This document shows positions 5,950-60,280 of a stretch of DNA of 64,000 nucleotides, piece after piece. The notes beneath the pieces were generated by a model, which saw only the letters and a list, made by a program, of their open reading frames with translations, was not told the DNA's origin and did no database searches. How positions within the stretch are numbered: position 1 is the first letter of the stretch; every line of letters starts with the position of its first letter. A program made the position numbers and the translations under genes. This DNA comes from a virus, in the IMG/VR virus record IMGVR_UViG_3300037418_004082, one strand, 5' to 3'.

Positions 5950-6840
5950 ATGCCTTACAGCGAAAAGGTTTCCGAGCAGATCATCGGCACGTTCATGGTG
6001 CGCAGCACGTTGCACATTGACGAAGACGTCGAAGATCCCATGACGTTCAGCGACTGCAACGGCACGCTCCATCGGTTCGAGCGTGGCGGGTACGGTCACA
6101 ACGACCAGATTCACGAAACCTACAAGGACGACCCGTTCGCCCTGCGCATCCAGCGGTTCGAGCACGGTAACGTGGTGTACTCGCTGGCCGGCGAGGGCCC
6201 GCAGTGCGAGTTCGACACCACCAAGTACGCGGGCTACTGGGTCTGCGATGGGAACTGCCGCGCAAACTACGATTCCGTGCTCGCGGAGAAGGGGTTGTTC
6301 GAGGCGCAGAAGTGGCTGCGCGAGGCGGGTCGCACCATCCTGGAGGAGTTCACCTCCTGGGCCAACGGAGACTGCTGGAGCACCGACGTCCAGGTCTTCG
6401 AGAACGGCGAAGAGCTGGAGGAACTGCGGGACCAGTGCGGCGGCTACGTCGGCCGCTCCTACGCCGAAACGTGCCTCAAGGAGTCGGCCGACGTGGTCAC
6501 CAAGCAAGTCGAGGCGATGATCGCCCGCCGGCTCGCCCGCCTCAAGCACTGGCTCGCCAAACACGGAATCTACACGGTCAGCGACCACGATGTGGAGCCG
6601 GTGCGGCGCTACCTCTACACGATCAAGGCCCGGGAGATGACCTTCGGGCCCCAGTATCGGTATGGCAACCAGGACACGGCAGAGCAGTGCCTGGCCATGT
6701 GCAACATGAACCAGCAGGACCAGCTCGTGCAGCTCGTGGACCTGGACGGCAAGGGGCCCGACGGATACGGCGCGCCCGTACCCTTCCAGATCGGCTACAC
6801 GCTGGCCGTGCGGTCGGAGGCGGTGCAGTCGTCGTGCTAA
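5950..6840 (+). CDS. hypothetical phage protein
   Basis: AAGGAG RBS; 296 aa; strong GC3 bias. Confidence 0.8.
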   Translation: MPYSEKVSEQIIGTFMVRSTLHIDEDVEDPMTFSDCNGTLHRFERGGYGHNDQIHETYKDDPFALRIQRFEHGNVVYSLAGEGPQCEFDTTKYAGYWVCDGNCRANYDSVLAEKGLFEAQKWLREAGRTILEEFTSWANGDCWSTDVQVFENGEELEELRDQCGGYVGRSYAETCLKESADVVTKQVEAMIARRLARLKHWLAKHGIYTVSDHDVEPVRRYLYTIKAREMTFGPQYRYGNQDTAEQCLAMCNMNQQDQLVQLVDLDGKGPDGYGAPVPFQIGYTLAVRSEAVQSSC

Positions 6841-7094
6841 TTCACCGCCCTGGTCCCCAGCGGGACTCCAACGACCCGGCCACGAAAGCCATCTACCGCG
6901 CCTGGGACAACCCGGGCGTGATCGTCAAGGCGCTTGTCATCTGTCAAGAGCGTCGGTTCCTACGACCTGTCGGAACGGATGTCGTGAACGAGCTGGCGTA
7001 CAACTTCCGTTCGTTCGATTGGTCACCGATTCACACCTACAAGGTCACGCCGGATGACGTGATCGAATACGTGAAGATGGAGCGTAACAAGTGA
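6834..7094 (+). CDS. hypothetical protein
   Basis: GTG overlapping upstream stop after GGAGG; GTGA overlap downstream. Confidence 0.55.
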   Translation: MLIHRPGPQRDSNDPATKAIYRAWDNPGVIVKALVICQERRFLRPVGTDVVNELAYNFRSFDWSPIHTYKVTPDDVIEYVKMERNK

Positions 7095-7606
7095 GCTTGA
7101 CGTATCTCGAAGAGATGAAGCACCAGGCAGAGCGCCTGGAGGCCGAAGGTTTCACGGTCAAGATGACGGAGTTGTTCACCAAGCGCATCGAAGAGCTTGG
7201 TCGCGCTCCCGACGACTGGGACTTCGCCGACTGCTCCGACCATCTGCTGATCGAGGTGTCGCGCGGCGACCTCTCGATCTTGGCCTACTCAAGCGGCGAG
7301 CGCCACCTGGCCATGCACGAGCTGCTGGGACCGAACAGCGCTGCGGAGGTCGGCGAGTGGCGCAACGACCGTATCCCGGAAGCGGAGTTGGCGCTCTTCC
7401 GCCACTTCGGCGACGGCGTCGAGTTCGAGCTGCTGGGCGCCCGCAAGTTCCAGTTCACGGTGCACCTCAACGGCTGGTTCGAGCACTTCCGTTTCGACCG
7501 CAACGAGCAGGCCAACGACGGCGTGGTGAACGACGCCTGCCCTACGCCGAACCTGCTCGCCGACGAGATCATCGCGTGGGAAAACGAAGAGAAGGAGAAC
7601 GTCTAA
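7091..7606 (+). CDS. hypothetical acidic protein
   Basis: GTGA overlap; 171 aa. Confidence 0.75.
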   Translation: MSLTYLEEMKHQAERLEAEGFTVKMTELFTKRIEELGRAPDDWDFADCSDHLLIEVSRGDLSILAYSSGERHLAMHELLGPNSAAEVGEWRNDRIPEAELALFRHFGDGVEFELLGARKFQFTVHLNGWFEHFRFDRNEQANDGVVNDACPTPNLLADEIIAWENEEKENV

Positions 7607-7608
7607 CG

Positions 7609-8028
7609 ATGCCCCTTTACATCTACACCGAAAAGTGTCGTGACGAGCACGAGCTGAAGGGTCCCCAGTTCACGGCCGGCGAGTTCCCCGGCTTCTCGCC
7701 GCTCGTGCAGACGATGACCCTGCTGTCGATGACGGCGGGTCTGTACGAGCTGACGACGAAGAACGTGGACGAGTGGATCTTCCGCGCCAAGGTGCTCGCG
7801 GACACGGGTCTGCGGCTCGTGTGCCGGCGTGAAGGCGACGACCGTCCCGACCACATCACCCGCCAGGAGATCGAGCGCCTGGTGGGCTTCCGCACCAACG
7901 CCAGCTCGATGAGCCGCGCGGAGTTCAAGAAGAACGTGTGGCTGCACCTGGAGCGCGAGGCGAACGCCTACGTGCGGCGTTCGAAGGAAGACGCGCCGCC
8001 CGCGAGCCTGGCCCCGGCCCTGAAGTAG
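7609..8028 (+). CDS. hypothetical protein
   Basis: AAGGAG RBS; MPLYIYTEK... Confidence 0.75.
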   Translation: MPLYIYTEKCRDEHELKGPQFTAGEFPGFSPLVQTMTLLSMTAGLYELTTKNVDEWIFRAKVLADTGLRLVCRREGDDRPDHITRQEIERLVGFRTNASSMSRAEFKKNVWLHLEREANAYVRRSKEDAPPASLAPALK

Positions 8029-8042
8029 AGGAGACCATAACC

Positions 8043-8441
8043 ATGGTAGACATCGGCATCACCGTTCGCAACGCCATCCGAGCCCTGCAGCGCCCGGACA
8101 CCACCATGTCCGCAGACGCGAAGCGCTCGCTGGAGGACATGCTGCGCCTGATCGCGCAGCAGAACCCCACCGATCAGGAGATCCAGGACGCCATCGACGC
8201 CTACCTGGAGCCGCCTCGACCCGTAAAATTCGTCGTCGAGTTCACCGCGATGGTGCCGAACGGCGACTTGAGCAAGGCCGACTGGCTTCGCAAGGACCTG
8301 GCCATGAAGCTCAACACCCACATGGAGACCGGTGCCCCCGCGGCCCCCACGATCGACGTGCTGGGGGAGCTGCGCGCCCAGGACCTGGAGCTTACCCGGA
8401 TCCGCGTGACCGAGAGCATGGTGGTCGAAGATGCCCGCTAG
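8043..8441 (+). CDS. hypothetical protein
   Basis: GAGGAG RBS; MVDIGITV... Confidence 0.75.
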   Translation: MVDIGITVRNAIRALQRPDTTMSADAKRSLEDMLRLIAQQNPTDQEIQDAIDAYLEPPRPVKFVVEFTAMVPNGDLSKADWLRKDLAMKLNTHMETGAPAAPTIDVLGELRAQDLELTRIRVTESMVVEDAR

Positions 8442-8682
8442 GGGCCATTCGCCACGCACCATCCTTGGTTGTCGCCGCGAGCCCGAACCCGACGAAGCGG
8501 CCCGCGGCGCGGAGGTGGTCTTCGTGCGGCTCGACCACAACGGCAACGAGGTCAACATCCTGGCCTTCCTCACGGAGGACGGCCAGTATTCCCAGTACGG
8601 CGCAGACGCCGACACGTTGTGGGACAACGTGCCCGACGTCGAAGAGTGGCGTGAAGAACGCCTAGAGGAGTTGGCACCTTGA
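8431..8682 (+). CDS. hypothetical protein
   Basis: Overlaps both neighbours; 83 aa. Confidence 0.6.
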   Translation: MPARGHSPRTILGCRREPEPDEAARGAEVVFVRLDHNGNEVNILAFLTEDGQYSQYGADADTLWDNVPDVEEWREERLEELAP

Positions 8683-9089
8683 CACGTTTGATGACACACA
8701 ATACCGATACCGCGCACATCACTGACGAACACGGCTCGCTCTGCCGCCGCTTCGACACGAGTGGGCGATGGGTCAAGCCCAATGAACGTGAAGGTGTACA
8801 TTACAACATTTGTAAGGCGTGCGAGAAAGCTAACGACAAGGAGACGAAGCGCCGCGAGGAGCGAGACCACCAAGTCAAAGCCGATCGCGAAATCGTCGGT
8901 GACGACCACCATCGGTTGGCGAGACTTGCCAACGCCTACCTCGACGCAATCGACGAGAAGGACGATAGCCCTTCGATTCGCCTCACGCGATCGGAGCGTG
9001 CCATCGCCGTCGCGGAGTTCCTGCAGTTCGCTTTGGGCTTCGAGATATACGTCAACGAGCCAAAGAACGGTCCGGCCACGTTGTCCTAG
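8679..9089 (+). CDS. hypothetical protein
   Basis: TTGA overlap after GAGGAG; last gene before AT-richer intergenic region. Confidence 0.65.
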   Translation: MTRLMTHNTDTAHITDEHGSLCRRFDTSGRWVKPNEREGVHYNICKACEKANDKETKRREERDHQVKADREIVGDDHHRLARLANAYLDAIDEKDDSPSIRLTRSERAIAVAEFLQFALGFEIYVNEPKNGPATLS

Positions 9090-9141
9090 CGGTATGACAT
9101 CTCGCGCACAGCGCCATTTTTGTGCCGTTTTGTAAACAAGC

Positions 9142-9169
9142 TTGACGAATTGTGGTTGTCTGTTACAAT
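9142..9169 (+). promoter_or_regulatory. sigma70/sigmaA-type promoter
   Basis: TTGACG (9142-9147), 16-bp spacer, TGn-TACAAT extended -10 (9161-9169). Confidence 0.7.
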
Positions 9170-9264
9170 CGGTGTTAACCTTTATAAATGCCTCCGACGC
9201 AGGGTGTTCGAAACCCATCAAACGAACATCGGATGTTAGAGGCAATCTGAAAAGGATAGAACCA

Positions 9265-9447
9265 TTGCTACGTCAACCACACCGTCGGGTCACGTACACG
9301 CGAATCACAACGAAGCAAGTGATCACGCAGCGCCCCGCGGACGACGACCGACCAATACCGACATCACTATTCCGTTCCATCACCGATTACGCACGCACCG
9401 AGTTTGTCGAATTAGACGACGCCGTCCGACGGTACTTCGGCACGTGA
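9265..9447 (+). CDS. possible small protein (60 aa)
   Basis: TTG after AAAGGA; atypical codon usage; could instead be an untranslated leader. Confidence 0.3.
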   Translation: MLRQPHRRVTYTRITTKQVITQRPADDDRPIPTSLFRSITDYARTEFVELDDAVRRYFGT

Positions 9448-9465
9448 AACAACAAGCGTGACGTG

Positions 9466-9474
9466 TGGTACAAT
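9466..9474 (+). promoter_or_regulatory. possible extended -10 element upstream of the spoVS-like gene
   Basis: TGG-TACAAT; no clear -35. Confidence 0.35.
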
Positions 9475-9570
9475 GTAGTCACAACGACCACCGCCACGAC
9501 GCGCCACCGAAGTCACACAGCACGATCAATCGGTTACCTGTTGGATCACCTTCAAGAAGAGGAGCGTCAC

Positions 9571-9945
9571 ATGACCGCCCACGCCGAACAATTCGAAGAG
9601 TTCGAGGTGCACGAAGTGCCCACGAACGGCCCGGTTCCGATGAACCGCGCGTTCAGGGCATCCGTGGTGCCCGCGAAGCAACCGCCGAAGCCTCTCAAGG
9701 TCAGCTCGCACAGCGACGTCGGCCCTCTGGCCGGTGCGATCACCGAAACTATGAAGCGCCACGGCGCCTGCGAGATGCGCGCCATCGGCGCGGCCGCGGT
9801 CAACCAGGCGATGAAGGCTCTCGCCATCAGCCGGGGCCAGCTCGTTACCTCCGGCATCGACGTCGTGATGCGACCGTCGTTCTACGAGACGGTCATCGAA
9901 GGCCGTCCCATGAGCGGGTTGAGCTTCATCCTCGACTGCGCCTAG
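9571..9945 (+). CDS. spoVS: stage V sporulation protein S (SpoVS) family, Alba-like fold
   Basis: LKVSSHS..GPLAGAI...MRAIGAAAVNQAMKALAISRG...GID closely follows the SpoVS consensus (AIGAGALNQAVKAVAIARG); GAGGAG RBS. Confidence 0.9.
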   Translation: MTAHAEQFEEFEVHEVPTNGPVPMNRAFRASVVPAKQPPKPLKVSSHSDVGPLAGAITETMKRHGACEMRAIGAAAVNQAMKALAISRGQLVTSGIDVVMRPSFYETVIEGRPMSGLSFILDCA

Positions 9946-10529
9946 TCTTCGTTCCCTGCGTCAGCCATCGACTCCTCGTCGCCTTCGGGCGGCGGGGAGT
10001 CGATGTTTCCGGCCTCTTTTCTTTTAGCTTCCCGGGCCAGGGCGTCGCTGTGGGCGCCGCGCAGCAGGGCGAAGATCGTGGGGTCGATCACGTCGCCGCG
10101 CTCGTACCGCTTCTGGACGGTCTGGATCAGGTTGTGGATGCTCTTGGAAGGCGTGTCGGCCAGCACGGCCGCGACCGTCGTGGCGTCCTCCTCCTGGGCC
10201 TTGCGCGCGAGCAACGGCTGGTGTTGGCGCGCGGCCACGAAGGTGAAGGTCCTGCCCTTGTAGCTGACCACGTAGGAGCCCGTAGAAGCGTCCCAGGCCA
10301 GCGAGGGCTTGTACCGGGTGGGGACGAACCGTCCGACCCCCTTCACGGTCAAGCTGTCGCCGTTCGCGAGCACCTCCAGGAAGGTCGCCCAGAACGTCTC
10401 CATGATCAGCTCGACGTCGGCGGCCCGGAAGCCCGTCCGCTTGCTCACGATCTTGGCGAGGCCGTGGCCGGTGACGGTCTTGTTCGGGTCGGCGGGCTCC
10501 GTGGCCTTCCAGCGGCGTACGCGGGGCAT
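9942..10529 (-). CDS. HU/IHF-family DNA-binding protein with C-terminal extension
   Basis: LAKIVSKRTGFRAADVELIMETF...LANGDSLTVKGVGRF...AWDASTG HU-like pattern; about 90 extra C-terminal residues. Confidence 0.8.
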   Translation of the reverse strand: MPRVRRWKATEPADPNKTVTGHGLAKIVSKRTGFRAADVELIMETFWATFLEVLANGDSLTVKGVGRFVPTRYKPSLAWDASTGSYVVSYKGRTFTFVAARQHQPLLARKAQEEDATTVAAVLADTPSKSIHNLIQTVQKRYERGDVIDPTIFALLRGAHSDALAREAKRKEAGNIDSPPPEGDEESMADAGNED

Positions 10530-10542
10530 GGGTAGGTCCTCC

Positions 10543-11346
10543 TTAAACGATCTCGATGGCTTCCGCTTCGATCGTCGCCTTGCCGATGATGTGCTGCTCG
10601 ACAGGCGCCGTCATCAGCTTCATGGCGAAGCTGTGCAGGAAGTTGTCCTTGGTCTTGTTCAGGTCGAAACGCATGATGGTCTCGGCCAACTTGTGCACGC
10701 TCATCGACGCCGTCGTGAACATGTTCATCGTTGCTTGCAGACGCTTGAACGCCTCGTCGTCGTGCACGTTAATAAGCGTTTCGATGCTACGTGCAGAGTT
10801 GCCAAAGGCCATCATGTAGCGGTAGTTCATCGTGAGTGCGTCTTGTAATGCTTTACCTGGCTCGACTTGCTCTTCGCCCGATGTGGAGGCGAAGAAGCGC
10901 AGGTCGTCGTACGAGAACGTGAGAATGCGTCGCAACGACTCCGCGTGCATCGGGTCGCGACGGAACAAACCATCCAGGTACGCGAAACGATCCGTGGGTG
11001 ATTCGAACACCTTGATGTCGAAGAACAGGTCCGCGTAAGCTTGCACGACGGCCAGCTCGTCCGTCATCTGCAGCAAGTCCGCGGCCTTCTCGTAGTCGAG
11101 CGTCGCGAGCAGCATGGCGTCCATCACGAACCGGATCGCCGGCTGCTGGAACTTGAGGAGGGCGCGCACCACGGCGGGGTCGGGTGGCGGCGCCTTCTTG
11201 CCCTTGGGCCGCGGCGGGGGCTTGACCACGTTCACCAGCAGCTCGCTGATCGCGTCGGGCTTGGGCAGCATCTTGAGCCCGTCCTCGTGGCTGGGCATCT
11301 GGATCTGCGGCGCGACCCGGTTGTAGCGATGGCGGGGAGACAGCAT
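10543..11346 (-). CDS. hypothetical helical protein
   Basis: 267-aa ORF with GC3 bias, co-oriented with neighbours. Confidence 0.7.
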   Translation of the reverse strand: MLSPRHRYNRVAPQIQMPSHEDGLKMLPKPDAISELLVNVVKPPPRPKGKKAPPPDPAVVRALLKFQQPAIRFVMDAMLLATLDYEKAADLLQMTDELAVVQAYADLFFDIKVFESPTDRFAYLDGLFRRDPMHAESLRRILTFSYDDLRFFASTSGEEQVEPGKALQDALTMNYRYMMAFGNSARSIETLINVHDDEAFKRLQATMNMFTTASMSVHKLAETIMRFDLNKTKDNFLHSFAMKLMTAPVEQHIIGKATIEAEAIEIV

Positions 11347-11355
11347 GCGGCGGGG

Positions 11356-11706
11356 TTAGTCCTCGTCGCCGTCCTCTTCGTGGTCGTCCTCGCCCTGGTC
11401 GGGGTCGGGCTGCGCGGGAGGCGAAAGTAGTGCGGTCTGCGGCGCGGCGAGGTTGCGCGGCTTGATGCGGTAGCGGACGACCACCACCATTGTAGCCGCA
11501 ACGTAGTCTATTTCAACCCCCTGCCGATCGAAGGTGCGCTTCTCTTGCGTGCGGGTGACGTCTTCCTTGACGATCTCCAGGGTGTGCTGGTTCTGCGCGA
11601 TCAGCTCGTTGTAAGCCTTCAGCTCCCGGCCATCGTACAGGTCGAACACGCCGACCTGCTCGATGGCATCGGGTTCCTGGTAGCTCTTCCGCGGCAGAAA
11701 GAGCAC
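11356..11706 (-). CDS. hypothetical protein with acidic tail
   Basis: 116 aa; tail DQGEDDHEEDGDED. Confidence 0.7.
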   Translation of the reverse strand: MLFLPRKSYQEPDAIEQVGVFDLYDGRELKAYNELIAQNQHTLEIVKEDVTRTQEKRTFDRQGVEIDYVAATMVVVVRYRIKPRNLAAPQTALLSPPAQPDPDQGEDDHEEDGDED

Positions 11707-11709
11707 GTG

Positions 11710-13782
11710 CTACCCCACGTTCGTCATGAACTGGCCCCGGCTCACGCTGGCGTTGATCAGTGTGGAGCGGAACTTGTCGGCCTCGCGGAAGACCCGCAGG
11801 ACCTCTTGCTCCGTCAGGAACTTGACCTTGTCCAAGCGCACCAGGGTGAGGATGCGGCCCAGCTTATCGCCGACCTCGCCCAGCAGGCCGATCAGCTCCT
11901 GGGCGATCTGCATGACCTCGACGTCCGGCAGCTCGTTGGTGGCGAAGCCCATCAGGATGTCGCTGATGTCCGGCAGGCCCTCCACCTCGGGACCGATCGC
12001 CGCCGACGTGTCGATCACCATGCCCGGGTCCTCGCCCTGCTGCGTCATCCCCACGGCGTCCGCGCGGCCGCTGTTGTCGAAGGCGACCTTGAGGCTCATC
12101 AGGTCCATCGCCAGCTTCACGGCACCCGGCGACAACACGCCCGGCTTGCGGTCGAGTGACGGCTCCAACACGCTGGCCTCGAACGTGTCGTACTTGTAGT
12201 TGCTGATGTCGTTCAGGATGGAGAGCGCCTTGTCGGGCGTCATCGCGTAGCGGTGCACGAGGTGCTGCACGAACTGCCCTCGCGTCAACGGGCTGCTGGG
12301 CGCGCCGTGGTGCTCGGAGATGCGCCAGAGGCCACCGCCCTTGAACACCTTCACCTTGACCACGTGACGCTCCGTGTCCTCGCGCGAGTCGGCCAGCGTG
12401 TCGAAGCGGGAGTCCGCGTCGAGCTTGGTGGGGTTGATGGCGAAGACGCTGTAGCCTTCCTTCGGGTAGGCGATCTCGCCGGGGCCCATGCGGTAGACGC
12501 CGCGCTGGTTGCCGAAGGAGATCGTGATGATGGGCGCCGTCTCGTTCGAGACGAGAGGCTTGACCTGCAGGACCGTGGCACCACCCTGGGTGTGGTGCTT
12601 GCCGGCGATGCGGAAGGGCACCGACGCCTCGTTGGTGACGTGGTTGAACAGGAACGCCATCTCGCCAGGCTTCAGCTCCGCGCGGCGGTAGATGTGGCGC
12701 ATCTCGTCGCCGCTGGGCACGGCGGACGGCGCGGCGCGCCAGTGCGTGCCGTGGTCCACCGCGTAGCCGTCCGTGCAGACCGCGAGCTTGTAGCCGCAGG
12801 GCAGGCCGTCCAGGTGGAAGGTGCGGAAGACGCGCGCGGTGGTCTCCTTCTTCAGGCCGGGCAGCGCGATCTCGTACCAGCCCGGGTCCTTCACGCCCAT
12901 CTGCGAGACGGCGTCGAACTTGCGACGGTCGTGCTCCTCGACGGTCAGGTGCGCGCGGCGCAGCGGGCTCGCGTCGGGCGCGGTCGCCATGATCGGGTCG
13001 GCCTTCTTGGCCTCCTTGACCCGGGTATCGAGCACCACGACGTCGTTGCGCAGCAAGGACGCGACGTGCTCCGGCTGGTTCAGCTCGCGCAGCAGGCTCG
13101 CGGCCTTGGGCATCTCCAGCTCCGTGAACTGGTTGTCCACGCCCACCTGCACGGCGCCCGACGGACGGGCCTCCATGGTCACCAGGTGGCCGGCAGCGGC
13201 CGCCTTGACGATGCGAGCGGGGTCGGTGGTCGCCTTGGCCGTGGCGAGCACGTGCTTCATCGTGGTCGCGTAGACGGGGAAGTCGGCGGCCGCGGCCTTC
13301 ATCGCTTCGTCGATCTCCTTCACGCGGGCGTCGTCCATCACCAGGATCTGGCTGGAGAGCTTCACGCGCTCGAACGAACGCATCACGTGCATGGGGCTGC
13401 GGCGGCCACCCTGGCGGTCGCTCGCGAACGGCGGCACCATCTCCAGGAACACGTCCCGGTCGATCGACGCCGGCATCCGCTCGACCACGGTGCCCATGCC
13501 GACGTTGTTGAACACGAACATCAGGTTGGGCTCCGACAGGTAGCAGAAGCGCGGCTCGCCGGCCTGGTGGAAGATGAGCGTGTCGAAGGGCTTCAGCTCG
13601 AACTCGCGCACGACGTACGGCACGACGGCGTTGTTCACCGGCACGACGCCATAGCCGTTGCCTTCCTCGTCCACGCCCAGCTCCTTCGTCTCGACGACGT
13701 AGGGCTCCAGCACGGGAAACTGCTGCAGGAGCGCTTGGATGATATAGGCACCCCACTGGACGGGATTCAAAGGCAGGCGCAT
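11710..13782 (-). CDS. large hypothetical protein, possibly virion structural
   Basis: 690 aa from ATG after AAGGAG; divergent from the baseplate-like gene; function not recognised. Confidence 0.6.
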   Translation of the reverse strand: MRLPLNPVQWGAYIIQALLQQFPVLEPYVVETKELGVDEEGNGYGVVPVNNAVVPYVVREFELKPFDTLIFHQAGEPRFCYLSEPNLMFVFNNVGMGTVVERMPASIDRDVFLEMVPPFASDRQGGRRSPMHVMRSFERVKLSSQILVMDDARVKEIDEAMKAAAADFPVYATTMKHVLATAKATTDPARIVKAAAAGHLVTMEARPSGAVQVGVDNQFTELEMPKAASLLRELNQPEHVASLLRNDVVVLDTRVKEAKKADPIMATAPDASPLRRAHLTVEEHDRRKFDAVSQMGVKDPGWYEIALPGLKKETTARVFRTFHLDGLPCGYKLAVCTDGYAVDHGTHWRAAPSAVPSGDEMRHIYRRAELKPGEMAFLFNHVTNEASVPFRIAGKHHTQGGATVLQVKPLVSNETAPIITISFGNQRGVYRMGPGEIAYPKEGYSVFAINPTKLDADSRFDTLADSREDTERHVVKVKVFKGGGLWRISEHHGAPSSPLTRGQFVQHLVHRYAMTPDKALSILNDISNYKYDTFEASVLEPSLDRKPGVLSPGAVKLAMDLMSLKVAFDNSGRADAVGMTQQGEDPGMVIDTSAAIGPEVEGLPDISDILMGFATNELPDVEVMQIAQELIGLLGEVGDKLGRILTLVRLDKVKFLTEQEVLRVFREADKFRSTLINASVSRGQFMTNVG

Positions 13783-13832
13783 GATAATCTCCTTGGCTGG
13801 GTTCAAGCTAATTATCATCCGAAGCAGGTAAC

Positions 13833-15368
13833 ATGCGCGACGGTACGCTCTTCATCCAATTCTTGAGCGACTTCTGGACCACCGTCTGGACCGACCGCAA
13901 ACTGCTCGTGAAGGCGGTTGGCGCCCAAGTGGAGCTGCTCCAACGGCTCTACCTGCAGGCCGTCCGCGTCGCCGCGCCGGACTTCATCGACCAGCTCCCG
14001 ATCTTCCGCGAGGACTTCTGGCACCTGATCACGCTGGCGGAGAGCGCCGCGATCGACGTCGCCAAGACCAAGTACCGCCTCGACGCGCGGTACGAGACCG
14101 TGCCCTTCCTCTACAACAAGGTCTTCAACCCGACCAAGGTCCTGCGCGAAGGCGTGGACTACACCATCACCAAAGACGTGCCCGTCGGCGCGAACGACAG
14201 CACCCAGGTGGCGCCGTCTGTCATCACGTTCACGAGCAACCCCTTCGCCGACGCGACGATGCCCATCGCGGCGTCCGGCACCGACAAGCTGCTCGCCTTC
14301 TTCGCGCCCAAGGTGCTGGTGGACCAGGACGACCTGTACCGCTTGTTCGGCCACCTGGTCAACATCGTGCAGCCCTCCAGCGAGCAGTACCGCCAGCTCA
14401 TCAAGGGCGCGCTCTCGCTCTACGCGCACGGCCCCAAGCTGTTCTTGATGAACGCCGGCCTCAACATGGCCGCGGGCTACCCGGTGAGCCGTGACTTCGA
14501 TCGCGTGACCGGTATCACGAACAACGCCACGCACTACGTGATCCGCACGGAGAAGGGCGTGCGCTACGACATCCCGCTCGTGGCTACCTTGTCCGTGCAG
14601 GTGAACTCCAAGCTGCGGCCCTTCTCGACCTTCATCACCGACATCCGGTTGATGGACCACCACACGGTGCCGGAGTGGTGGAAGGGCGGCCGCGGGAACA
14701 CCAACCCGGAGTTCCGCATCGTCAACTACATCCCGCCAGAGATGGCACCCGAACTTGATGCCGCCATGCGTGACGACCCCGAAGTGATCGACTACCTGTT
14801 CGAGCAGTTCTTCAAGACGCACACGTTCGGCATGCAGGTGAACACGTTGGCCGTCCAGAACTTCGACGCGATCGAGGCGTTCTACAAGCTCGTCTTCGAT
14901 GTGAAGCCCTCACACACGAGCCCCTACATCAACTCGTTCTTCAAGGCGGAGCTGCTGTTCGAGCTGCCGGAGGAGGACCCGGAGGTGCACAGCCTGATCG
15001 AGCTGATGGCCCAGCTCGACACCGGCTCCGACCGCGACGACGCGGACTACTGGAGCTTCCCGCCCGACGTCGTCATGAACTCGGAACTGGTGCTGAACGC
15101 CGACCCCAGCTTCATGACGCAGAGCAACTACGACAGGCCCGCGCTGTCGGCCGACATCGACCTGGACGAGCCGGTGCAGACCGGCGGCGGCCAGTTCACC
15201 TTGGGCGGCCTGACCCGTCTGGGTGGCGGCGGACCGCTCGACAGCATGCGCGAGCACGTCAACATCACGGCGACCATCGAGCTGGAAGACGAAGTGGACA
15301 CGCCGACCGAAGTCGTCGGCATCTTCGTGACGGACGAGGACACGAACGTCACGACACAGGTCGTGTGA
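13833..15368 (+). CDS. putative baseplate/tail structural protein
   Basis: LREGVDYTI...VITF beta motif, YAHGPKL..GLN..AGYP segment resembling myophage wedge proteins, acidic C-terminus; precedes cell-wall hydrolases. Confidence 0.45.
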   Translation: MRDGTLFIQFLSDFWTTVWTDRKLLVKAVGAQVELLQRLYLQAVRVAAPDFIDQLPIFREDFWHLITLAESAAIDVAKTKYRLDARYETVPFLYNKVFNPTKVLREGVDYTITKDVPVGANDSTQVAPSVITFTSNPFADATMPIAASGTDKLLAFFAPKVLVDQDDLYRLFGHLVNIVQPSSEQYRQLIKGALSLYAHGPKLFLMNAGLNMAAGYPVSRDFDRVTGITNNATHYVIRTEKGVRYDIPLVATLSVQVNSKLRPFSTFITDIRLMDHHTVPEWWKGGRGNTNPEFRIVNYIPPEMAPELDAAMRDDPEVIDYLFEQFFKTHTFGMQVNTLAVQNFDAIEAFYKLVFDVKPSHTSPYINSFFKAELLFELPEEDPEVHSLIELMAQLDTGSDRDDADYWSFPPDVVMNSELVLNADPSFMTQSNYDRPALSADIDLDEPVQTGGGQFTLGGLTRLGGGGPLDSMREHVNITATIELEDEVDTPTEVVGIFVTDEDTNVTTQVV

Positions 15369-27419: not shown

Positions 27420-27671
27420 CTATACTGCCGTGTGGCCGCACATCAAGCACGGCTGTCCGGGGGTGTGCTTCAACTTGATGGCGCGACTTTTCCCGTCACC
27501 CAGCTCGATGAGCCCTGCGATGGCGAGACCTTCGAGGTGGTAGTGCACCGTGCTCGTCGAGCGCAGGCCCGTACCCTCCGCGATCTCACGTACCGTTGGC
27601 GTGAGGCTGTTGGCTTTGAAGTAGGTCTGGATGAACTCCAGCACTTCGTTACGCGTATCCGACTTGCTCAT
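27420..27671 (-). CDS. LexA N-terminal DNA-binding domain only, with C-terminal CxxC
   Basis: EVLEFI...[25 protein letters not shown]...GLI...KSRAI; ends PCLMCGH; no Ala-Gly site or S24 peptidase. Confidence 0.9.
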
Positions 27672-28033
27672 TCACCGAACTCCACACGAAAGGGCACGCC
27701 GATCTTGCCTTTCAACGACGCGTACTGCGTCTCCTCGACGGGGATGCGCATGCGCTGATCGCAGTGCTTGCACCAGGTGTCGGCCCAGTCGCCCCCGCCG
27801 TAACCCGTGTCGCCGTGCTCGTTGTGGCCGGTGACGAGACCGCACAAGAGCTTGGCGGGCCAGAGCAGCAGACGGTAGCCGCGCAACGGCCGGACACCCG
27901 GCAGGATCTTCTGCTGCAGCAGGCCGTCGATCAGCCCTTTACGGTACGCACGAACCAATTGGCTCACGACCGGCGTCAACGCCAGGCGGATCAGGGCGAG
28001 GTAACCGTACTGGCGGGTCTGCGGGCCGCACAT
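27668..28033 (-). CDS. hypothetical protein
   Basis: GTGA overlap; LCGLVTGH...WCKHC. Confidence 0.6.
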   Translation of the reverse strand: MCGPQTRQYGYLALIRLALTPVVSQLVRAYRKGLIDGLLQQKILPGVRPLRGYRLLLWPAKLLCGLVTGHNEHGDTGYGGGDWADTWCKHCDQRMRIPVEETQYASLKGKIGVPFRVEFGE

Positions 28034-29941: not shown

Positions 29942-30277
29942 CTAGGACCTCACGTGGGCTCGAAGGGCTGCATGGAGATCATCAACGTAGCGAGCAACCA
30001 CGTGACCATGGCAGGGGTTGGGTGCGCAGTAGCACACCAGGTTCGCGTTGCGCGGAATGGCGAGCAGGGCGTTGACCACGACCATGTTGCCGCCGGCCAC
30101 TTGCTCGTGAAGCCACACCTGGTAGTGCGCGATGGCCTCCTCGCGTGTCGTGACCTTCTTGACCTCCGGGAACTTGCTGGGCTTGCTCGACCAGCGGTTC
30201 GCGAGCGGTGACGGACGACCGATGTAGATGTCGCGTGTCGAGGGCACGTGGTAGTGCTTGTTAACCACGTGGGGCAT
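29942..30277 (-). CDS. DUF4326-like protein
   Basis: HVVNK...IYIGRPS.LAN...REEAIAHY..W...LVCYCAP.PCHGHV. Confidence 0.88.
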   Translation of the reverse strand: MPHVVNKHYHVPSTRDIYIGRPSPLANRWSSKPSKFPEVKKVTTREEAIAHYQVWLHEQVAGGNMVVVNALLAIPRNANLVCYCAPNPCHGHVVARYVDDLHAALRAHVRS

Positions 30278-30908
30278 ACGTGTCCCTCCATTCGTTCCAC
30301 ACGTTGATGAGCCGCGGCTTACCTGTGCGCTCGCTCAACTTGTGGACGTCTCGCACGCAGTTTCCCGTACCGCCCGCCGAACCGTCGTGTAGCGCAAGTA
30401 CCACCGTAGCGCGACGGTTCATCCACTCGTTGCGCACCTGCATCTTACGCGGTTCGTAGAAACCGTCACTCACGATGACGATGTACTCGGCCTTGACCAA
30501 GGTCTGTGCGTACAACGCACGTGACGCGTCGGGCCACGTGCCGTCCTGCCCGAAGCACGGGACGGCTGCGATCAGCTTGATGCCCAGCAAGAGGGCGGCT
30601 ATCGCGAGCGCGAGGTCCCAGCCCAGGGCCATCCCGGAGACGACCCAGTTGGGCTTGCCGTGCTGCAGGCACCACATGGCCAGCGCCACCAGCCGCTCGA
30701 ACACGTTGTCACCGTAGCCGCCCAGCTTGGGCGGGCGGTGCCCGGTCCCGCTCCAGACCTCGTCACCGAAGAGCACGTAGTGGTCCAGCACGTCGCGCGT
30801 GAAGACCTCGACGTCGGCAGGCAGGATCAGGCGACCCACGAACGGGTCCTCGTCAGGTGCTGCGGCATGTGCCTCGAAGGTGATGCGAAGGTCGGCTGCG
30901 CCAGCCAA
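30261..30908 (-). CDS. SLOG family (YspA/DUF1273-like) protein
   Basis: GTGHRP.KLGGY, SGMALGWD, RNEWM, GSAGGTGNCV. Confidence 0.85.
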   Translation of the reverse strand: MAGAADLRITFEAHAAAPDEDPFVGRLILPADVEVFTRDVLDHYVLFGDEVWSGTGHRPPKLGGYGDNVFERLVALAMWCLQHGKPNWVVSGMALGWDLALAIAALLLGIKLIAAVPCFGQDGTWPDASRALYAQTLVKAEYIVIVSDGFYEPRKMQVRNEWMNRRATVVLALHDGSAGGTGNCVRDVHKLSERTGKPRLINVWNEWRDTYAPRG

Positions 30909-30927
30909 GTAGGCTGGAGTGGAGGGT

Positions 30928-30956
30928 ATTATAGCCTACCAGAACACCTGGACCAA
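30928..30956 (-). promoter_or_regulatory. putative sigma70 promoter overlapped by an AGAACAC-N9-GTGTTCT dyad
   Basis: Minus strand TTGGTC-17 bp-TATAAT; dyad at 30941-30963. Confidence 0.5.
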
Positions 30957-31391
30957 GTGTTCTATCCCAGCCGGTTGAAAAACTTTTGTTAACACAGGCT
31001 CGACCTCGCTCCTGGTGCGCTTTCCGTTCTCGCAACCAGGCGCCGGCAAGCACACCGGCCAGAGGGTGGTCGGCGCCACGCGCAGCATCGTGCTGACCCA
31101 GTTGGTGAGCTGCCGCGCGCTCGTCTCGATGAGCGCCAGGTCGGCCTCCTGCTGCCAGTGGTGCTTGGTGGGGAACGTGATGAGCCGCAGGTCGGCCCAG
31201 AAGTAGCACTGGTTGCCGCCATTACGCAGCGCCGTGCCCAGGCGTGCGTCGAAGCCCGGGAAGCGCTGCGTGGTCGCCTTGGCGATGCCCGCACCCACGA
31301 TGGCCGTGCCGTCCTTGCGGGTGGCGCCGTTCGTGGTCACGCAGATGACGTGACCACACGCGTGCCAGTCCCAGATGGGATAGTGCTTCAC
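30936..31391 (-). CDS. macro domain (ADP-ribose binding/hydrolase) protein
   Basis: TTN...G...GAGIAK, LITFPTKHHW, LP..GC.NG. Confidence 0.82.
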   Translation of the reverse strand: MKHYPIWDWHACGHVICVTTNGATRKDGTAIVGAGIAKATTQRFPGFDARLGTALRNGGNQCYFWADLRLITFPTKHHWQQEADLALIETSARQLTNWVSTMLRVAPTTLWPVCLPAPGCENGKRTRSEVEPVLTKVFQPAGIEHLVQVFW

Positions 31392-31810
31392 GCCGGAGGC
31401 AGCAAGTAGGCGCTGCACACGCGGGCCCACTTCTCCGCGTTGTCGTGCCCGTCCAGCGCGCCCTCGTACAGCGGCAGGTCCGCGAGGAACACGTACGCGT
31501 CGTCGTAGCTCACGGGGAAGCTGACCTGGCCCGTGGGCAGGTCGATGATCAGCAGGTTGTCCTGCTCCGGGGACGCCGTGGCGTCCATGGTCACGCCAGC
31601 CTTGAGCCCCTGGCTCATCGCCACGCGAGCGACCAGGGCGGCGAGCATGGCCACCTGGGTCCGCATGCGATCGCGCTCATACTCCGCCTTCTCCGCGCGG
31701 TCGGTGAGCGTGTTGACGGTGTCGATGGCCTTGATGCGCGTGTCCTGCAACGCAACGAGGACGGGATCCTTGGGGCCCTCGACGGGGAGCAAGGGGTACT
31801 GCTGGGACAT
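31388..31810 (-). CDS. hypothetical phage protein
   Basis: IDLPTGQVSF...DGH..AEK motif seen in small phage proteins; GGAGG RBS. Confidence 0.7.
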   Translation of the reverse strand: MSQQYPLLPVEGPKDPVLVALQDTRIKAIDTVNTLTDRAEKAEYERDRMRTQVAMLAALVARVAMSQGLKAGVTMDATASPEQDNLLIIDLPTGQVSFPVSYDDAYVFLADLPLYEGALDGHDNAEKWARVCSAYLLPPA

Positions 31811-34017: not shown

Positions 34018-36603
34018 CTACTTCTTCCACTTGCTGCTGATCTGGCCGTCCGCCTTGTTGGGCACGTGCACCAGGATGCCCGCGCCCGCCCCCTCCATCG
34101 CGGCCACGACGGCGGCCAGGCAGGCTTCGGCCTGGCTCTTCTTGCACTTGACCACCAGCTCGTCGTGCACCTGCAGCACGATCTGCCACTGGCGCATCAA
34201 CGCCACCATCGCGCGCTTCACGATCTCCGCGCCGTTGCTCTGAATCGGGAAGTTCAACGCCCGCTGGTAGCAGGATACGCGCTGGATCTTCCCGTCCTCT
34301 TCCATGGTCACCTCGCGGGGCATCACGCGCACGCGGCCCAGCGAGTTCTCCACGATGTACGGCCCGTAGCCGTTCTTGATGTCCGTCTTGATGCGCTGGT
34401 GCCAGCCGCCCACGCCGGGGAACGTGCTGAAGTAGCCGTTGCGCTGCGTCTGCGCCTCCGCGTCCGACCACACCAGGCCGTACTGCTCCCAGGCCATGAT
34501 CTTCAGCTTGGGCCAGCCCGCGCCGTACGACAAGCCGAAGTTAGGCACCTTGGCGTTGTTACGGGCCTTCACGAACTCCGGGATCTTGTCCACCTTGTAG
34601 CGCTGGTACATCTCCTCGTACGTGACGCCCATGTTACGTGCCGCGGTCAAGCAGTGCGCGTCCTTGTCGCGGATGAACAGGTCGATCATCGACGCGTCCA
34701 TCGTCCACTCTGCCAACAAGCGCATCTCGATGTTGCTCAAGTCGCAGATGATGAACGTCCACGGGTCGTTCGGGTCGTTGTCTTCACACGCTTCCGCGTC
34801 CACGCACGCGCGCAGCTCCTTCGACTCCTTCGCCTTCGACGGGATGTTCTGGAAGTTAGGTCCGCTTGACGACAACCGGGACGTGCTGGTCTGGTACTGG
34901 TTGAAGCTCGCGTGCACGCGCTTCGTGACGGACGACACCTTCGTCAAGAAGGACAACGTGAAGTCCATCATCTTCGTGACGGACTTCCAGCGCAGGATCT
35001 TTCGGATGACCTCGTGGTCGATGTGCCGCTTCAGCTCCGCGCCGCGGTAGTTGGGCAGGGGGATGCCGCGCGCGTTCAGCTTCGGCACCATGTACACCTG
35101 CGAGCCCAGCTTGACCTCCTCGTCCGGGTGGTCCTTGAGCATCGTGATCAGCTCGTGCTCCAGGCGCTTGGCCTCGTGCAGCAACGCGATGTGCGTGCGC
35201 ATCGCCTGGCCGCGGTTGATGGGGATGCCGTGCAGCTCCATCCGCGCGATGGCCTCCGCCACGTCGCACTCCAGCTTGAACAGGTACGGCCAGGGCGTGC
35301 GACCTTGACGGTCACGGTGGGCGTGCAGCTCCTGCAACTGGTCCCACGCCAACCGCGGCATCCACATCGCGTCGAACGCGGCGTACACGACCTGGCGGGG
35401 CGAGAGGTCCTGGTGGATCCTGAAGGTCGCCTGCGGCTCCGGCGGCATCGGCTCGATCTTCTTCAGGCGCTTGTAGGCCGGGTCGTTCAGGTGCGCTTCG
35501 CAGAGCTGCTTGGTGTTGGCGCCGCTGCCCTTGAGGTAGGTAGGGGGCGCGTTGCAGCCGTCGAACATGCAGATGTTCACCCGGTTCTTCACCGGGTCCT
35601 TCTCCGGCTCCACGCGTTCCACGAAGCCCTTGCGGCGGAAGCTGGTTCGCAACGCCGGGTCCTTGTCCATGAGCTGGCCGTAGCGGCGCTGGATGACCGA
35701 GCCCAAGCCGATGCAGCTCGCGTCGAAGTCCATGCGGGTGACCTCGCCGAAGCCGTAGCCTTGGGCCAGGATGTACTCCGCAGCGATGCTGTCGTGGACG
35801 CTGTCCATGTACAGGTCCTCGCCGAAATACTTCATGAACCACTTGCGTTCGAACGAGCTGTTGTGAATGATCTTCGTGCACGCGTTCTCGCGCAGGTACG
35901 CTTCGAAGAACTCCACGTCCTTCACGTCAAGTAGCGTCTGCGGGAAGTCGAGGTGCACGACATACACGTGGTTGTTCAGCTCGACCTGCACGGTCGCGAC
36001 TTCACCGTCCCACGGGTTGATGACGCCTTCGGTTTCGATGTCGAGCCCGCTGTACTGGGGACCCGTCCACTTCCAGTTCGACAACTGCTTGCGCTTGCCG
36101 TTCGCGTGCTGCCCGATGATGAACGTCGAGAAGCAACCGCGCATGAACGAGAAGTCCTTCACGACGGTGACGTTGGCCGGCACGGTGAACACGTGCTCGA
36201 ACCCGTCGGGACCGTAGTGAGCGCCCATGGGGAGGGGCTCCGGCACGCGTACGACTTCGAGCACGGGAAGCGTGGGGGTGAGCGTGCCCTGGAGCTGTTG
36301 CACGAGCGTCGCGTTCTGCTGACGCGCTTCAACCGGGGAGACGACGCCAGCGGCAGCGTAGGCGGGGTTCGCGGGCGTCCAGGGGTTCTGGCCTTGGGAG
36401 GCTGCGAGGACGTTGTAGGCGGCGGGCACCTGGGCGGCGGGGACGACGTAGGGCTGTTGTTGCGTGACGGGCGTGCCCGGGAGGACCTGGAACTGCGGGT
36501 TAGAGGGGTAGGGGGTAGGCGCCGGGGCACTCTGGGCAGCGACCGACGGCCCGCCGATGGTGGGCGCGAGGCTGTTGGTGGGGAACTGGGGTGCGAAAGT
36601 CAT
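34018..36603 (-). CDS. polA: family A DNA polymerase with 3'-5' exonuclease, Zn-finger-like insertion and low-complexity N-terminus
   Basis: GLDIETE, HNSSFE, YAAFDA; TSRLSSSGPNFQNIP, DLSNIEMR, AKVPNFGLSYG, NFPIQS, QVHDEL. Confidence 0.96.
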   Translation of the reverse strand: MTFAPQFPTNSLAPTIGGPSVAAQSAPAPTPYPSNPQFQVLPGTPVTQQQPYVVPAAQVPAAYNVLAASQGQNPWTPANPAYAAAGVVSPVEARQQNATLVQQLQGTLTPTLPVLEVVRVPEPLPMGAHYGPDGFEHVFTVPANVTVVKDFSFMRGCFSTFIIGQHANGKRKQLSNWKWTGPQYSGLDIETEGVINPWDGEVATVQVELNNHVYVVHLDFPQTLLDVKDVEFFEAYLRENACTKIIHNSSFERKWFMKYFGEDLYMDSVHDSIAAEYILAQGYGFGEVTRMDFDASCIGLGSVIQRRYGQLMDKDPALRTSFRRKGFVERVEPEKDPVKNRVNICMFDGCNAPPTYLKGSGANTKQLCEAHLNDPAYKRLKKIEPMPPEPQATFRIHQDLSPRQVVYAAFDAMWMPRLAWDQLQELHAHRDRQGRTPWPYLFKLECDVAEAIARMELHGIPINRGQAMRTHIALLHEAKRLEHELITMLKDHPDEEVKLGSQVYMVPKLNARGIPLPNYRGAELKRHIDHEVIRKILRWKSVTKMMDFTLSFLTKVSSVTKRVHASFNQYQTSTSRLSSSGPNFQNIPSKAKESKELRACVDAEACEDNDPNDPWTFIICDLSNIEMRLLAEWTMDASMIDLFIRDKDAHCLTAARNMGVTYEEMYQRYKVDKIPEFVKARNNAKVPNFGLSYGAGWPKLKIMAWEQYGLVWSDAEAQTQRNGYFSTFPGVGGWHQRIKTDIKNGYGPYIVENSLGRVRVMPREVTMEEDGKIQRVSCYQRALNFPIQSNGAEIVKRAMVALMRQWQIVLQVHDELVVKCKKSQAEACLAAVVAAMEGAGAGILVHVPNKADGQISSKWKK

Positions 36604-36649: not shown

Positions 36650-36678
36650 ATTATACCCGACCGGGTGTTCGAGTTCTA
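36650..36678 (-). promoter_or_regulatory. putative polA promoter with SOS-box-like site in the spacer
   Basis: Minus strand TAGAAC-17 bp-TATAAT; CGACC-GGGT-GTTCG at 36658-36671. Confidence 0.5.
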
Positions 36679-45782: not shown

Positions 45783-46058
45783 CTAGGAGGCGACCGCGTC
45801 TCGTTCGACGGCGACGATCGCCTCCGCCTCGCTGTCGATCCAGAGTTCGAGGGGGTTGGCGCCGAGCACGCGGCAGATAGCGAGGTAGATGCTGGTTTCG
45901 GGCTGGCGCTTGCCGCGCTCGTAGCGAGACAGGTACTCCTCGCGCAGCATCTTGGGGTTGCCCTGGTCGTCGAGGTAGCGCACGCGCATCGCCAGCTCGT
46001 GCTGGGTGAGGTTCAGGGCCGTGCGAGCAGCGATGCAGGCTTGGGCGTTGAAGGGCAT
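45783..46058 (-). CDS. XRE-family HTH regulator
   Basis: ARTALNLTQHELA...LSRYERGKRQP...ICRVLG. Confidence 0.85.
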   Translation of the reverse strand: MPFNAQACIAARTALNLTQHELAMRVRYLDDQGNPKMLREEYLSRYERGKRQPETSIYLAICRVLGANPLELWIDSEAEAIVAVERDAVAS

Positions 46059-46892
46059 GCGGGGTCCTTCTGCGAGGAGGGTGGGAGGGGGAGGGGTATT
46101 TATTTTGGCCGCGTGGCCGCACGCATAACTTTCGCCGCACAAAAGTTGAAACCCTTCGGGCTCCTGGTGTTTCCGGGTCCCGGGTGATGCGTGATGCGGC
46201 CGGGGGCGGTCGGAAATGAGGGGGAGGGGGTGTTTGTGCTTGGGGCGTGAGAGGGTGCGGGTGGGATGTGGATGGGGTGCGAACTTGAGGCGGGTCCCCG
46301 GGTCGGGAGCCTATCTTCGCAGATGCCCCGATACCTGTCAAGAGAGCATGGGTGAACAAACTTTGTCGTTGAGACTATGGTGTCGTGGCTCATGATGATC
46401 GGACGACGCGGCGTCGAAGAACGGCTGGAGGTTCATCGTCGCTGGGTCAACGAGTCAGGCGATCTGCATTCATATACATGCGAGGCGTTGGTGGATGGGG
46501 ATGAGAGGGCTAGGAAGGCGGTTGTTTTGACCCGGAAGGTCTCGGAGTACCCGCCACCCACCCACGGAGGGAAATAGGGTAGTTAGAGAGTGGTTGGGTG
46601 AGGTGCTGGAGTGGGGGAGTTAGGGTATGGATCGGTGGATTGGGTGGTTGGTGGGTGAGATCGGAGGGCGCCCATGTAGGTGCCGCGGGGTGTTCGGATC
46701 TCGAACGCTTGTTTGCACGGTTGCCTGCTGATCACCATTTTTATTTTCGCAACTTTTTCGATCGCCGGCCGCCGAAACAACAAAGCTATAGGGAGAATCC
46801 AGAAAATAACCACCCACCCCCTGGAACAAGAACACCATACGAGGACCGCCACCAACAACACCATAGGGAGAACAAGGGGGAGGGGGTCCCCA

Positions 46893-46954
46893 ATTAAATC
46901 ACTATATATATATATATATTTTATTTGATAGTCTTACAAAATAAATAAATAAAT
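46893..46954. repeat. AT-rich tract with (TA)8 and (AAAT)4, possible DNA-unwinding element
   Basis: (TA)8 at 46903-46918; (AAAT)4 at 46939-46954 in an otherwise GC-rich genome. Confidence 0.8.
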
Positions 46955-47166
46955 AGGAAAGGTTGGTGACGTCTTGTCGTTGGTATATCAACTCACGCTG
47001 TAAAATTCGGCGGCGTGCCTGTTTCGAATTTCGATGGTCCACGGGGTCCGGCCCGCAAACCCAGTAGGTTCGTGTCACATTGGCGCGGATACGTGGTTTG
47101 CGGGCCGTGTTACGTGCTGGTGATCGGAGGGGTCCCCTGGTATTTTATCGCGCACGTCTCGTACGT

Positions 47167-47292
47167 GTGGAACGGGTGTTCCACAAACACGCGAAATTCG
47201 ATGGGGTCCTCGACCGAAAAGTGGAACGGGTGTTCCACACGCGCTCGTAATTCGAGGGGGTCCTCGTCGTGTTTGTGGAACGGGTGTTCCAC
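47167..47292. repeat. three GTGGAAC-GGGT-GTTCCAC palindromes at exact 54-bp period (GAAC-N4-GTTC core)
   Basis: Copies at 47167-47184, 47221-47238, 47275-47292; spacers share AATTCGA.GGGGTCCTCG. Confidence 0.92.
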
Positions 47293-47529
47293 ATGCGCGG
47301 GGAGGGGGTGGGGTATTTTCGGGACGTCGAACGCGTCGTTGGGGAGGGTCTATAATTATGAACAAAATAAGAAAGGTAAAGTTGCGGTTAAACTGTACAA
47401 AATAAATTCAAGGGGGTCCCCCTCGCGCACGGCCCGAAAATTACAGGGGGACCCCTGCGCGAACGCATGAAAAACGCGTGACCGAACACGAAAACCGTGT
47501 CGATCACGCGGGGGAGGGGGTCTAATTAT

Positions 47530-58107: not shown

Positions 58108-58460
58108 ACACCACGTGGGGCAGCTTGCGCTCGCAGGCTTACCTACGTGGCGTCAAGCTTCCACCACGCCACAGCTTACAAGACGCGTACATGCAACTGG
58201 CACTTCAACGTGAAAACGAACGACGTCTTGATGAAGTCAATGTTATAATTCATGCGTTGTGGGCCACCGTTCCGTCTGAAAGTCAAAAGACCTTCATCGA
58301 AGCGACCATGAACACGGCCAAGAGCATCTTCAAGTCCCTTTTCCCGTTCGCCAACCAGACGCCCAAGAGCACGGTGGATCGCGATCAGGAGCAGGCCCGA
58401 TTGCTTAAGAAGCTGATCGACGGGAAGGGCTTCAAGATCGAGATCGAGGGGGACAAATGA
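58101..58460 (+). CDS. -1 frame extension (119 aa) of the 56857 gene, giving a predicted 534-aa product
   Basis: VLDTTWGSLRSQAYLRG...IEIEGDK; no strong RBS for an independent start; ATGA overlap with next gene. Confidence 0.65.
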   Translation, partial: VLDTTWGSLRSQAYLRGVKLPPRHSLQDAYMQLALQRENERRLDEVNVIIHALWATVPSESQKTFIEATMNTAKSIFKSLFPFANQTPKSTVDRDQEQARLLKKLIDGKGFKIEIEGDK

Positions 58461-58723: not shown

Positions 58724-58737
58724 AAGGAGCATCTCCC

Positions 58738-60231: not shown

Positions 60232-60250
60232 CGTAACCAGGTAACAAACG

Positions 60251-60280
60251 AGGTGGGTGCCGTGTGCGCCCACCTTTCTC
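60251..60280 (+). terminator. probable Rho-independent terminator
   Basis: AGGTGGGTGC-CGTGT-GCGCCCACCT followed by TTCTC. Confidence 0.6.

Follow-up and report, generated by a model that had tools for sequence, protein, structure and literature searches.

In LexA, the S24 peptidase domain with its Ser–Lys dyad doubles as the dimer interface of the protein, and the isolated head of E. coli LexA pairs only on DNA. The target GAAC-N4-GTTC is read by the LexAs of the Bacillota, Actinomycetota and Chloroflexota. The N-terminal domains (NTDs) of LexA and of the CI proteins of S. aureus phages 11 and 80alpha stay bound and repressing after cleavage until they are removed by ClpX, and so provide a described case of heads that lack a dimerisation domain, still repress and are RecA-proof (PMC10584840). 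Phage GIL01 is known to manipulate host LexA, keeping a co-resident prophage down (PMC9700832), and temperate phages commonly have LexA-like repressors adjoining their integrases (bioRxiv 10.1101/2024.08.14.607894). Proteins consisting of a single LexA head of 70–110 residues with no S24 domain are found among phage and prophage LexA_DNA_bind proteins (PHROG 3502, 24920 and 362) and are also encoded by isolated phages, an example being the ‘LexA DNA-binding domain protein’ of Bacillus phage 11143. We found no study in the literature testing the function of a stand-alone phage LexA head.

The protein described here is a further head of this kind, with an unusual cysteine-containing tail. Its gene lies in a window of 64,000 nucleotides (the whole stretch of DNA that was analysed) from a large, uncultured, metagenomic phage of ~194 kb (IMG/VR record IMGVR_UViG_3300037418_004082), and a megablast search with 20 kb of the window matched no sequenced phage. 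We refer to the 83-residue product as mini-LexA; the features of the locus discussed below are compiled in Table 1.

Table 1. Features of the mini-LexA locus, candidate operators and related loci; positions are those of the 64,000-nucleotide window unless another locus is named
Feature	Position	Strand	Basis or remark
mini-LexA gene (S24-less LexA-type, 83 aa)	27420..27671	-	ORF, PF01726, contig calls, GC3; stop codon 27420-22
GGAG Shine-Dalgarno of mini-LexA gene	27680..27683	-	8 nt 5' of ATG; from sequence
Winged helix-turn-helix, residues 5-67	27471..27659	-	AF2 and Foldseek; helices 6-21, 27-34 and 39-51, wing strands 55-57 and 65-67
Recognition helix S38-L46, STSTVHYHL	27534..27560	-	Aligns with E. 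coli LexA helix 3
C-terminal tail, residues 68-83	27423..27470	-	7-residue linker, C75-x-x-C78 at 27438-27449, H69 and H80 flanking
121-aa gene preceding mini-LexA gene	27668-28033	-	C64, H70, H73 and CKHC motif
Free ClpX C4 zinc-binding N-domain, 107 aa	26582-26905	-	PF06689 E 1e-14; NCBIfam clpX positions 5-48 of about 415
DUF4326, SLOG/YpsA-like and more small genes	29942-31430	-	Upstream of MT-A70 gene
Small unlisted ORF, ~103 codons	33700-34012	-	Occupies seeming gap after PolA
PolA	34018-36603	-	First gene of array with mini-LexA gene
Weak candidate operator CGACC-GGGT-GTTCG	36658..36671	.	One mismatch to CGAAC-N4-GTTCG; GGGT spacer as in dyads
XRE-type gene	45783-46142		Flanks dyad region
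Non-coding, AT-rich, repeat-rich origin-like region, 1.4 kb	46143-47529		Between RecD-like helicase gene and XRE and DUF927 primase-helicase genes
Candidate operator 1, GTGGAAC-GGGT-GTTCCAC	47167..47184	.	Perfect dyad
Candidate operator 2, same 18-mer	47221..47238	.	54 bp from operator 1
Candidate operator 3, same 18-mer	47275..47292	.	54 bp from operator 2
Candidate target sequence GTGGAACGGGTGTTCCAC			Proposed target, as is CGAAC-N4-GTTCG
CxxC head and Dam methylase overlap loci	L008 892-1664; L009 1378-2150; L016 993-2374		Loci of other phage-like contigs

The original prediction of a LexA winged helix was borne out by profile, sequence and structure comparisons alike. Residues 7–64 match Pfam LexA_DNA_bind (PF01726) with an E value of 5.1e-15 and 55.4 bits (cut-off 23.7 bits), the PHROG matches are to 3502 (E 6.6e-15), 24920 (E 2e-11, function unknown) and 362 (E 5e-8, ‘transcriptional repressor’), and the top PDB sequence match in phmmer is the E. 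coli LexA DNA-binding domain 1lea (E 9e-8). The AF2 monomer model, made with an alignment of 60 relatives, has a pLDDT of about 90 over residues 5–67, and its best Foldseek matches are LexA (3jso/1lea, with an rmsd of 1.5 A over 67 columns for 1lea), while weaker matches include the Rrf2-type RsrR and IscR. The recognition helix was likewise correctly predicted to be of the Bacillus type, as it is of the type carried by full-length Bacillota LexAs (STSTVHGHL in the Enterococcus LexA P0222) and differs from that of E. coli LexA (SPNAAEEHL). Mini-LexA therefore has in common with Bacillota LexA/DinR the fold, the Pfam family, the recognition-helix type and the expected target class. It very probably binds DNA in a sequence-specific manner, and because LexAs with such a recognition helix read GAAC-N4-GTTC, binding to dyads of that type would be expected.

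What mini-LexA lacks is the other half of LexA. The chain ends at residue 83, 16 residues past the wing, with no S24 domain, as had been claimed, and the lexA model TIGR00498 gives only 53.6 of the 110.95 bits that it requires, with a match confined to model positions 7–70. A tblastn search of the 64-kb window with four full-length LexAs matched heads only and found no S24 portion, and a split LexA, considered as a candidate, is ruled out by the lack of an S24 gene in the window. From its sequence, then, mini-LexA is a LexA head and neither a LexA nor one part of a split LexA. The further claim that it has no Ala-Gly site holds for the tail, where neither an Ala-Gly nor a Cys-Gly cleavage site follows the wing, but not for the whole chain, which has a sole A-G pair (A52–G53) inside the winged helix. 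With both the S24 domain and a cleavage site absent, mini-LexA should neither cleave itself nor be a substrate for RecA* in the manner of LexA, which agrees with the predicted insensitivity to RecA. Compared with LexA, it thus has a 16-residue CxxC tail in place of the linker cleavage site and Ser–Lys domain, and it is encoded by a phage, in an operon of lytic type. It also differs in origin from the cleaved NTDs of LexA and CI, which are made by cleavage and cleared by ClpX, whereas mini-LexA is made as a head, with a tail added and a gene for a ClpX N-domain nearby.

Stand-alone heads are numerous. An exhaustive search returned 3514 relatives at E <= 1e-3, often single LexA heads of 70–130 residues, and in the ESM Atlas LexA_DNA_bind-only proteins of 70–100 residues make up many clusters, mostly viral or from Bacillota, those nearest to mini-LexA being viral. 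The uncleavable LexA head is therefore common among phages and not new by itself. Some relatives consist of tandems of two to four LexA heads, without S24 and without CxxC; these proteins (P0003–P0011, P0016, P0029 and P0088), in effect covalent ‘dimers’ of the LexA head, are apparently undescribed. Their presence in other S24-less lineages suggests that pairing may be the need that is served.

Most stand-alone phage LexA heads have no cysteine tail, and it is in the tail that mini-LexA differs from them. The motif, C75-L-M-C78-G, had been placed at the very C terminus as PCLMCGH; the actual end differs, as C78 lies 5 residues before it. The attention that the original prediction gave to the CxxC was nonetheless warranted. 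In an unbiased library search, 13 of 83 S24-less single-domain proteins carry a CxxC <=30 residues past the wing, a number that should be about 0.5 if other tails, in which Cys makes up 1.5%, are the guide. When profile matches are included the set grows to 23 proteins, 13 of which read C-P-x-C-G, with a linker of 3–16 residues (commonest 7) between the last wing strand and the motif and, in many, a stop only 2–9 residues after it. We define the CxxC-tailed subset accordingly, as having C-x-x-C (mostly C-P-x-C-G) 3–16 residues past the last wing strand and at or near the C terminus; mini-LexA falls within this definition, as do 22 relatives. The six members of one lineage (P0054 and P0152–P0156, 64–81% identity to P0152) differ in their linkers but all keep the C-P-x-C-G unchanged, and IMG/VR added one further member of that lineage only. 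The tails occur on at least three recognition-helix types, STSTVH[YF]HL, STSVVAYNL (also present in the Chloroflexi LexA P0200) and SPNGVxxHL. On a head-only tree the trait requires 14 changes; a single CxxC clade was not rejected on its 63 columns (AU p 0.089, delta lnL 47.7). A literature search found no LexA heads with a CxxC tail, and judged by these comparisons the tail is a recurrent, conserved and undescribed variant of phage LexA heads.

The genomic contexts of CxxC-tailed members were phage-like in all six examined, and include terminase and Mu-F genes, an SNF2 helicase and a 157-kb contig that encodes Ndt and Tmk. No neighbouring gene is common to these contexts. In two separate lineages a Dam-type (PF05869) methyltransferase gene begins within the gene for the CxxC head, and in the window an MT-A70 methylase is encoded three genes upstream of mini-LexA; a CxxC head with a methylase gene may represent a controller–methylase pairing.

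The mini-LexA gene itself is well formed and is called as a gene on the minus strand. Its ATG shares the sequence ATGA (27668–27671) with the TGA of the preceding 121-aa gene, an overlap which points to translational coupling, and the downstream gene begins 12 nt past its stop. The GC3 of 0.80 is similar to that of the adjoining genes. Fourteen metagenomic contigs from several samples, the longest of about 193.6 kb, carry the protein unchanged; there are no close orthologues beyond these identical copies, the next relatives having <=55% identity. The phage lineage is very poorly sampled, since the proteins of the structural regions (56857–63820 and 5950–15368) have no PHROG or Pfam match. Its PolA is less than 30% identical to every one of its phage relatives, no tRNA genes were found, and a search of genome contigs for LexA returned two Clostridia LexAs only.

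The gene belongs to a minus-strand array running from PolA to ThyX/Tmk in which genes are co-directional, with overlapping stops and starts and almost no intergenic space; the seeming gap behind PolA is filled by a small ORF, so that the array has no true intergenic break. Between PolA and mini-LexA are encoded a SLOG-like protein, a DUF4326 protein, the MT-A70 methyltransferase, a dUTPase and unknown proteins of 179 and 121 aa. Past mini-LexA come a nucleoside deoxyribosyltransferase-like protein (Ndt), a 107-aa ClpX zinc-binding domain, ThyX, thymidylate kinase and a PD-(D/E)XK protein. The array is the part of this large, probably lytic phage that serves replication and nucleotide metabolism, and the placement of the mini-LexA gene is unlike that of a lysogeny switch. 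Two other small proteins of the operon deserve mention. The free ClpX N-domain is encoded two genes downstream of mini-LexA and is absent from the loci of other CxxC-tailed heads; since ClpX takes the NTDs of LexA and CI off DNA (PMC10584840), a free N-domain might interfere with their removal. The coupled 121-aa protein has no match in Pfam, PHROG or NCBIfam and its gene is not conserved beside other CxxC-tailed LexA heads; its pattern of cysteines and histidines indicates that it may bind zinc.

The original prediction that the phage has GAAC-N4-GTTC boxes of its own proved correct. The motif occurs 5 times in the window against 1.0 expected, and three perfect copies of one 18-mer stand 54 bp apart in the origin-like region. 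These three dyads have perfect 7-bp inverted arms and an 11-bp centre spacing, and read GGAAC/GTTCC, unlike the CGAAC/GTTCG of classical Cheo boxes. They are 100% identical to each other while the intervening DNA is only about 64% identical, which argues for selection at the DNA level. The left arm of operator 1 overlaps a -35-like hexamer of a promoter-like site on the minus strand, for which the evidence is weak. An ORF on the minus strand (47110–47292) reads VEHPFH three times across the dyads with an 18-codon period; it was rejected as a gene, having no RBS, being missing from the gene-call collection and showing identical 18-mers against diverging flanks, and the in-frame recurrence is probably a coincidence. 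Two matches to the 18-mer in IMG/VR (L010 2993–3010 and L011 686–703) were also rejected as operators, as both lie inside long unrelated ORFs, reading VEHPFH, and reflect chance or coding.

The surrounding 1.4 kb looks, from its composition, like an origin or control region. It has a (TA)n/(AAAT)n core at about 46890–46960, four AATTCGAGGGGGTCCTCG-like palindromes belonging to a second motif family with which the dyads alternate, repeated promoter-like elements on the plus strand (GGGGAGGG(GG)TCTA(T)AATTAT) and 8 terminator-like hairpins against 1.5 expected. Elsewhere, a one-mismatch box adjoins a TATAAT just upstream of PolA, at the head of the array that contains mini-LexA; degenerate and one-mismatch boxes occur in the rest of the window at background frequency only, so this site is a lead and nothing more. 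The half-site GGGTGTTC is found 8 times against 2.6 expected, which is suggestive only. The loci of five other CxxC-tailed members, covering 2–20 kb each, contain no GAAC-N4-GTTC, some of these members having other recognition-helix types, and palindromes upstream of other CxxC-member genes were uninformative. On balance we lean slightly towards mini-LexA reading dyads of the GAAC-N4-GTTC type; that the three dyads of the origin-like region are its sites is an attractive but somewhat weaker proposition, which we would put a little short of likely.

How the tail works can be read in more than one way. Across 11 diverse members no potential metal ligand is conserved apart from the two cysteines equivalent to C75 and C78, and the presence of only two per chain favours a metal site shared between chains. 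With no conserved partner protein and with heads joined covalently in other lineages, such a site would be completed by a second copy of mini-LexA, and a zinc-bridged homodimer is accordingly our tentative proposal, which we put below an even chance. The comparison with a Rad50 zinc hook made in the original prediction is apt in that each chain has one CxxC and needs a second chain for a tetrahedral Zn(Cys)4. It is loose in other respects, as in Rad50 a long antiparallel coiled coil bears the CxxC at its apex, whereas mini-LexA lacks any coiled coil and has the motif at the end of a flexible 7-residue linker; the two share no homology. The tail could instead be a self-contained zinc knuckle or a docking peptide, on a protein that is monomeric or that pairs only on DNA, with no shared metal. 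Mini-LexA has four potential ligands within 12 residues (H69, C75, C78 and H80) and hence a possible single-chain C2H2-like site, several relatives have C-x-x-C-x-[C/H] or a nearby His, the AF2 monomer shows a tiny hairpin with a bridge 74/81 (at low confidence, pLDDT 54–61, and with no helix beyond residue 51), and many stand-alone LexA heads do without a Cys tail altogether. The third or fourth Cys/His, however, is present in only about a third of the CxxC relatives and its position is not conserved; at least 8 relatives, including the whole of the P0054/P0152–P0156 lineage, contain just the two Cys and nothing else that could act as a ligand, and no conserved neighbouring gene could supply a docking partner. 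We consider a knuckle or docking peptide of this sort rather unlikely. A redox centre, in which the cysteine pairs of two chains hold an Fe–S cluster or a disulfide to give a redox-switched regulator, is very improbable: clusters that bridge dimers do exist in winged-helix regulators, RsrR and IscR are among the weaker fold matches and two Cys per chain could bridge a [2Fe-2S], but C-P-x-C-G is a typical zinc-knuckle turn, the protein has no Rrf2-like dimerisation helix and its context gives no redox hint.

The role of the protein also admits alternatives. Mini-LexA might be a working regulator that acts on host SOS boxes or other phage promoters while the dyads belong to the XRE protein, the DUF927 primase-helicase, host DnaA or host LexA. 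The XRE and primase-helicase genes flank the dyad region, the second motif family is interleaved with the dyads, TGTTCCACA is DnaA-box-like, and the mini-LexA gene lies 20 kb away with no operator of its own. The inverted arms and centre spacing nevertheless suit a symmetric dimer and not DnaA, and the dyad core is exactly the motif of LexAs with the same recognition helix, so that we treat another owner for the dyads as a real possibility that still falls below an even chance. The ‘transcriptional repressor’ annotation of PHROG 362 and the frequency of LexA-like repressors beside integrases would fit a CI-like immunity repressor of a temperate phage. Such a role is, in our estimation, quite remote, given a gene mid-operon among others, for dUTPase, MT-A70, Ndt, ThyX, Tmk and PolA, whose stops and starts overlap, no divergent promoter, no integrase seen nearby, a ~194-kb phage with its own replication set and, in the absence of S24, no route to induction. 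The idea that mini-LexA is a functionless, decaying fragment of a captured lexA has only its small size to commend it and is hardly credible for a gene with intact RBS and coupling, neighbour-like GC3, an identical sequence on 14 contigs and a tail motif found in distant relatives.

Taking these points together, mini-LexA is probably a working regulator that binds DNA sequence-specifically and does not respond to RecA, with its conserved CxxC tail serving as a module that binds a metal or a partner. It would be co-transcribed with the nucleotide-metabolism and replication genes and, given this and the translational coupling, would be made during lytic development. The best candidate targets would be the three GTGGAAC-N4-GTTCCAC dyads near the primase-helicase genes, with host SOS boxes as further candidates should the host be a Terrabacterium. 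The tail would most likely substitute for the lost S24 dimerisation domain through a two-chain metal site, and a pair of mini-LexA chains joined by it would sit on the dyads in a form that RecA* could not displace. That mini-LexA also damps the host SOS response is doubtful, though the persistence of repressing NTDs (PMC10584840) and the effect of GIL01 on host LexA (PMC9700832) make it plausible, and the nearby ClpX N-domain gene adds to this. Its purpose might then be common with that of GIL01 gp7 and of plasmid PsiB, namely to prevent SOS and the induction of rival prophages during replication; gp7 and PsiB make protein contacts with host LexA or RecA, whereas mini-LexA would compete at DNA sites. 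In its fullest and decidedly speculative form, which we regard as improbable as a whole, the proposal would be that phages have repeatedly made a RecA-proof mini-LexA by exchanging the 130-residue S24 domain for a C-P-x-C-G half-knuckle with one Zn per two chains, that the dimer acts on origin dyads and host SOS boxes, and that the free ClpX domain shields these heads, the phage's own or those of cleaved host LexA, from ClpX, so that the SOS regulon and resident prophages are kept locked during lytic growth.

If a four-residue Cys motif does replace a dimerisation domain, it would rank with the most compact means known by which a bacterial-type repressor oligomerises, and would explain phage SOS-box binders that DNA damage cannot turn off. 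With a free ClpX N-domain encoded in its operon, mini-LexA also provides a specific setting in which to probe the ClpX step that removes repressor heads (PMC10584840). The finding also bears on the regulation of phage origins and on the design of compact synthetic repressors, as well as on how lytic phages may silence the host SOS response, resident prophages and SOS-linked defences.
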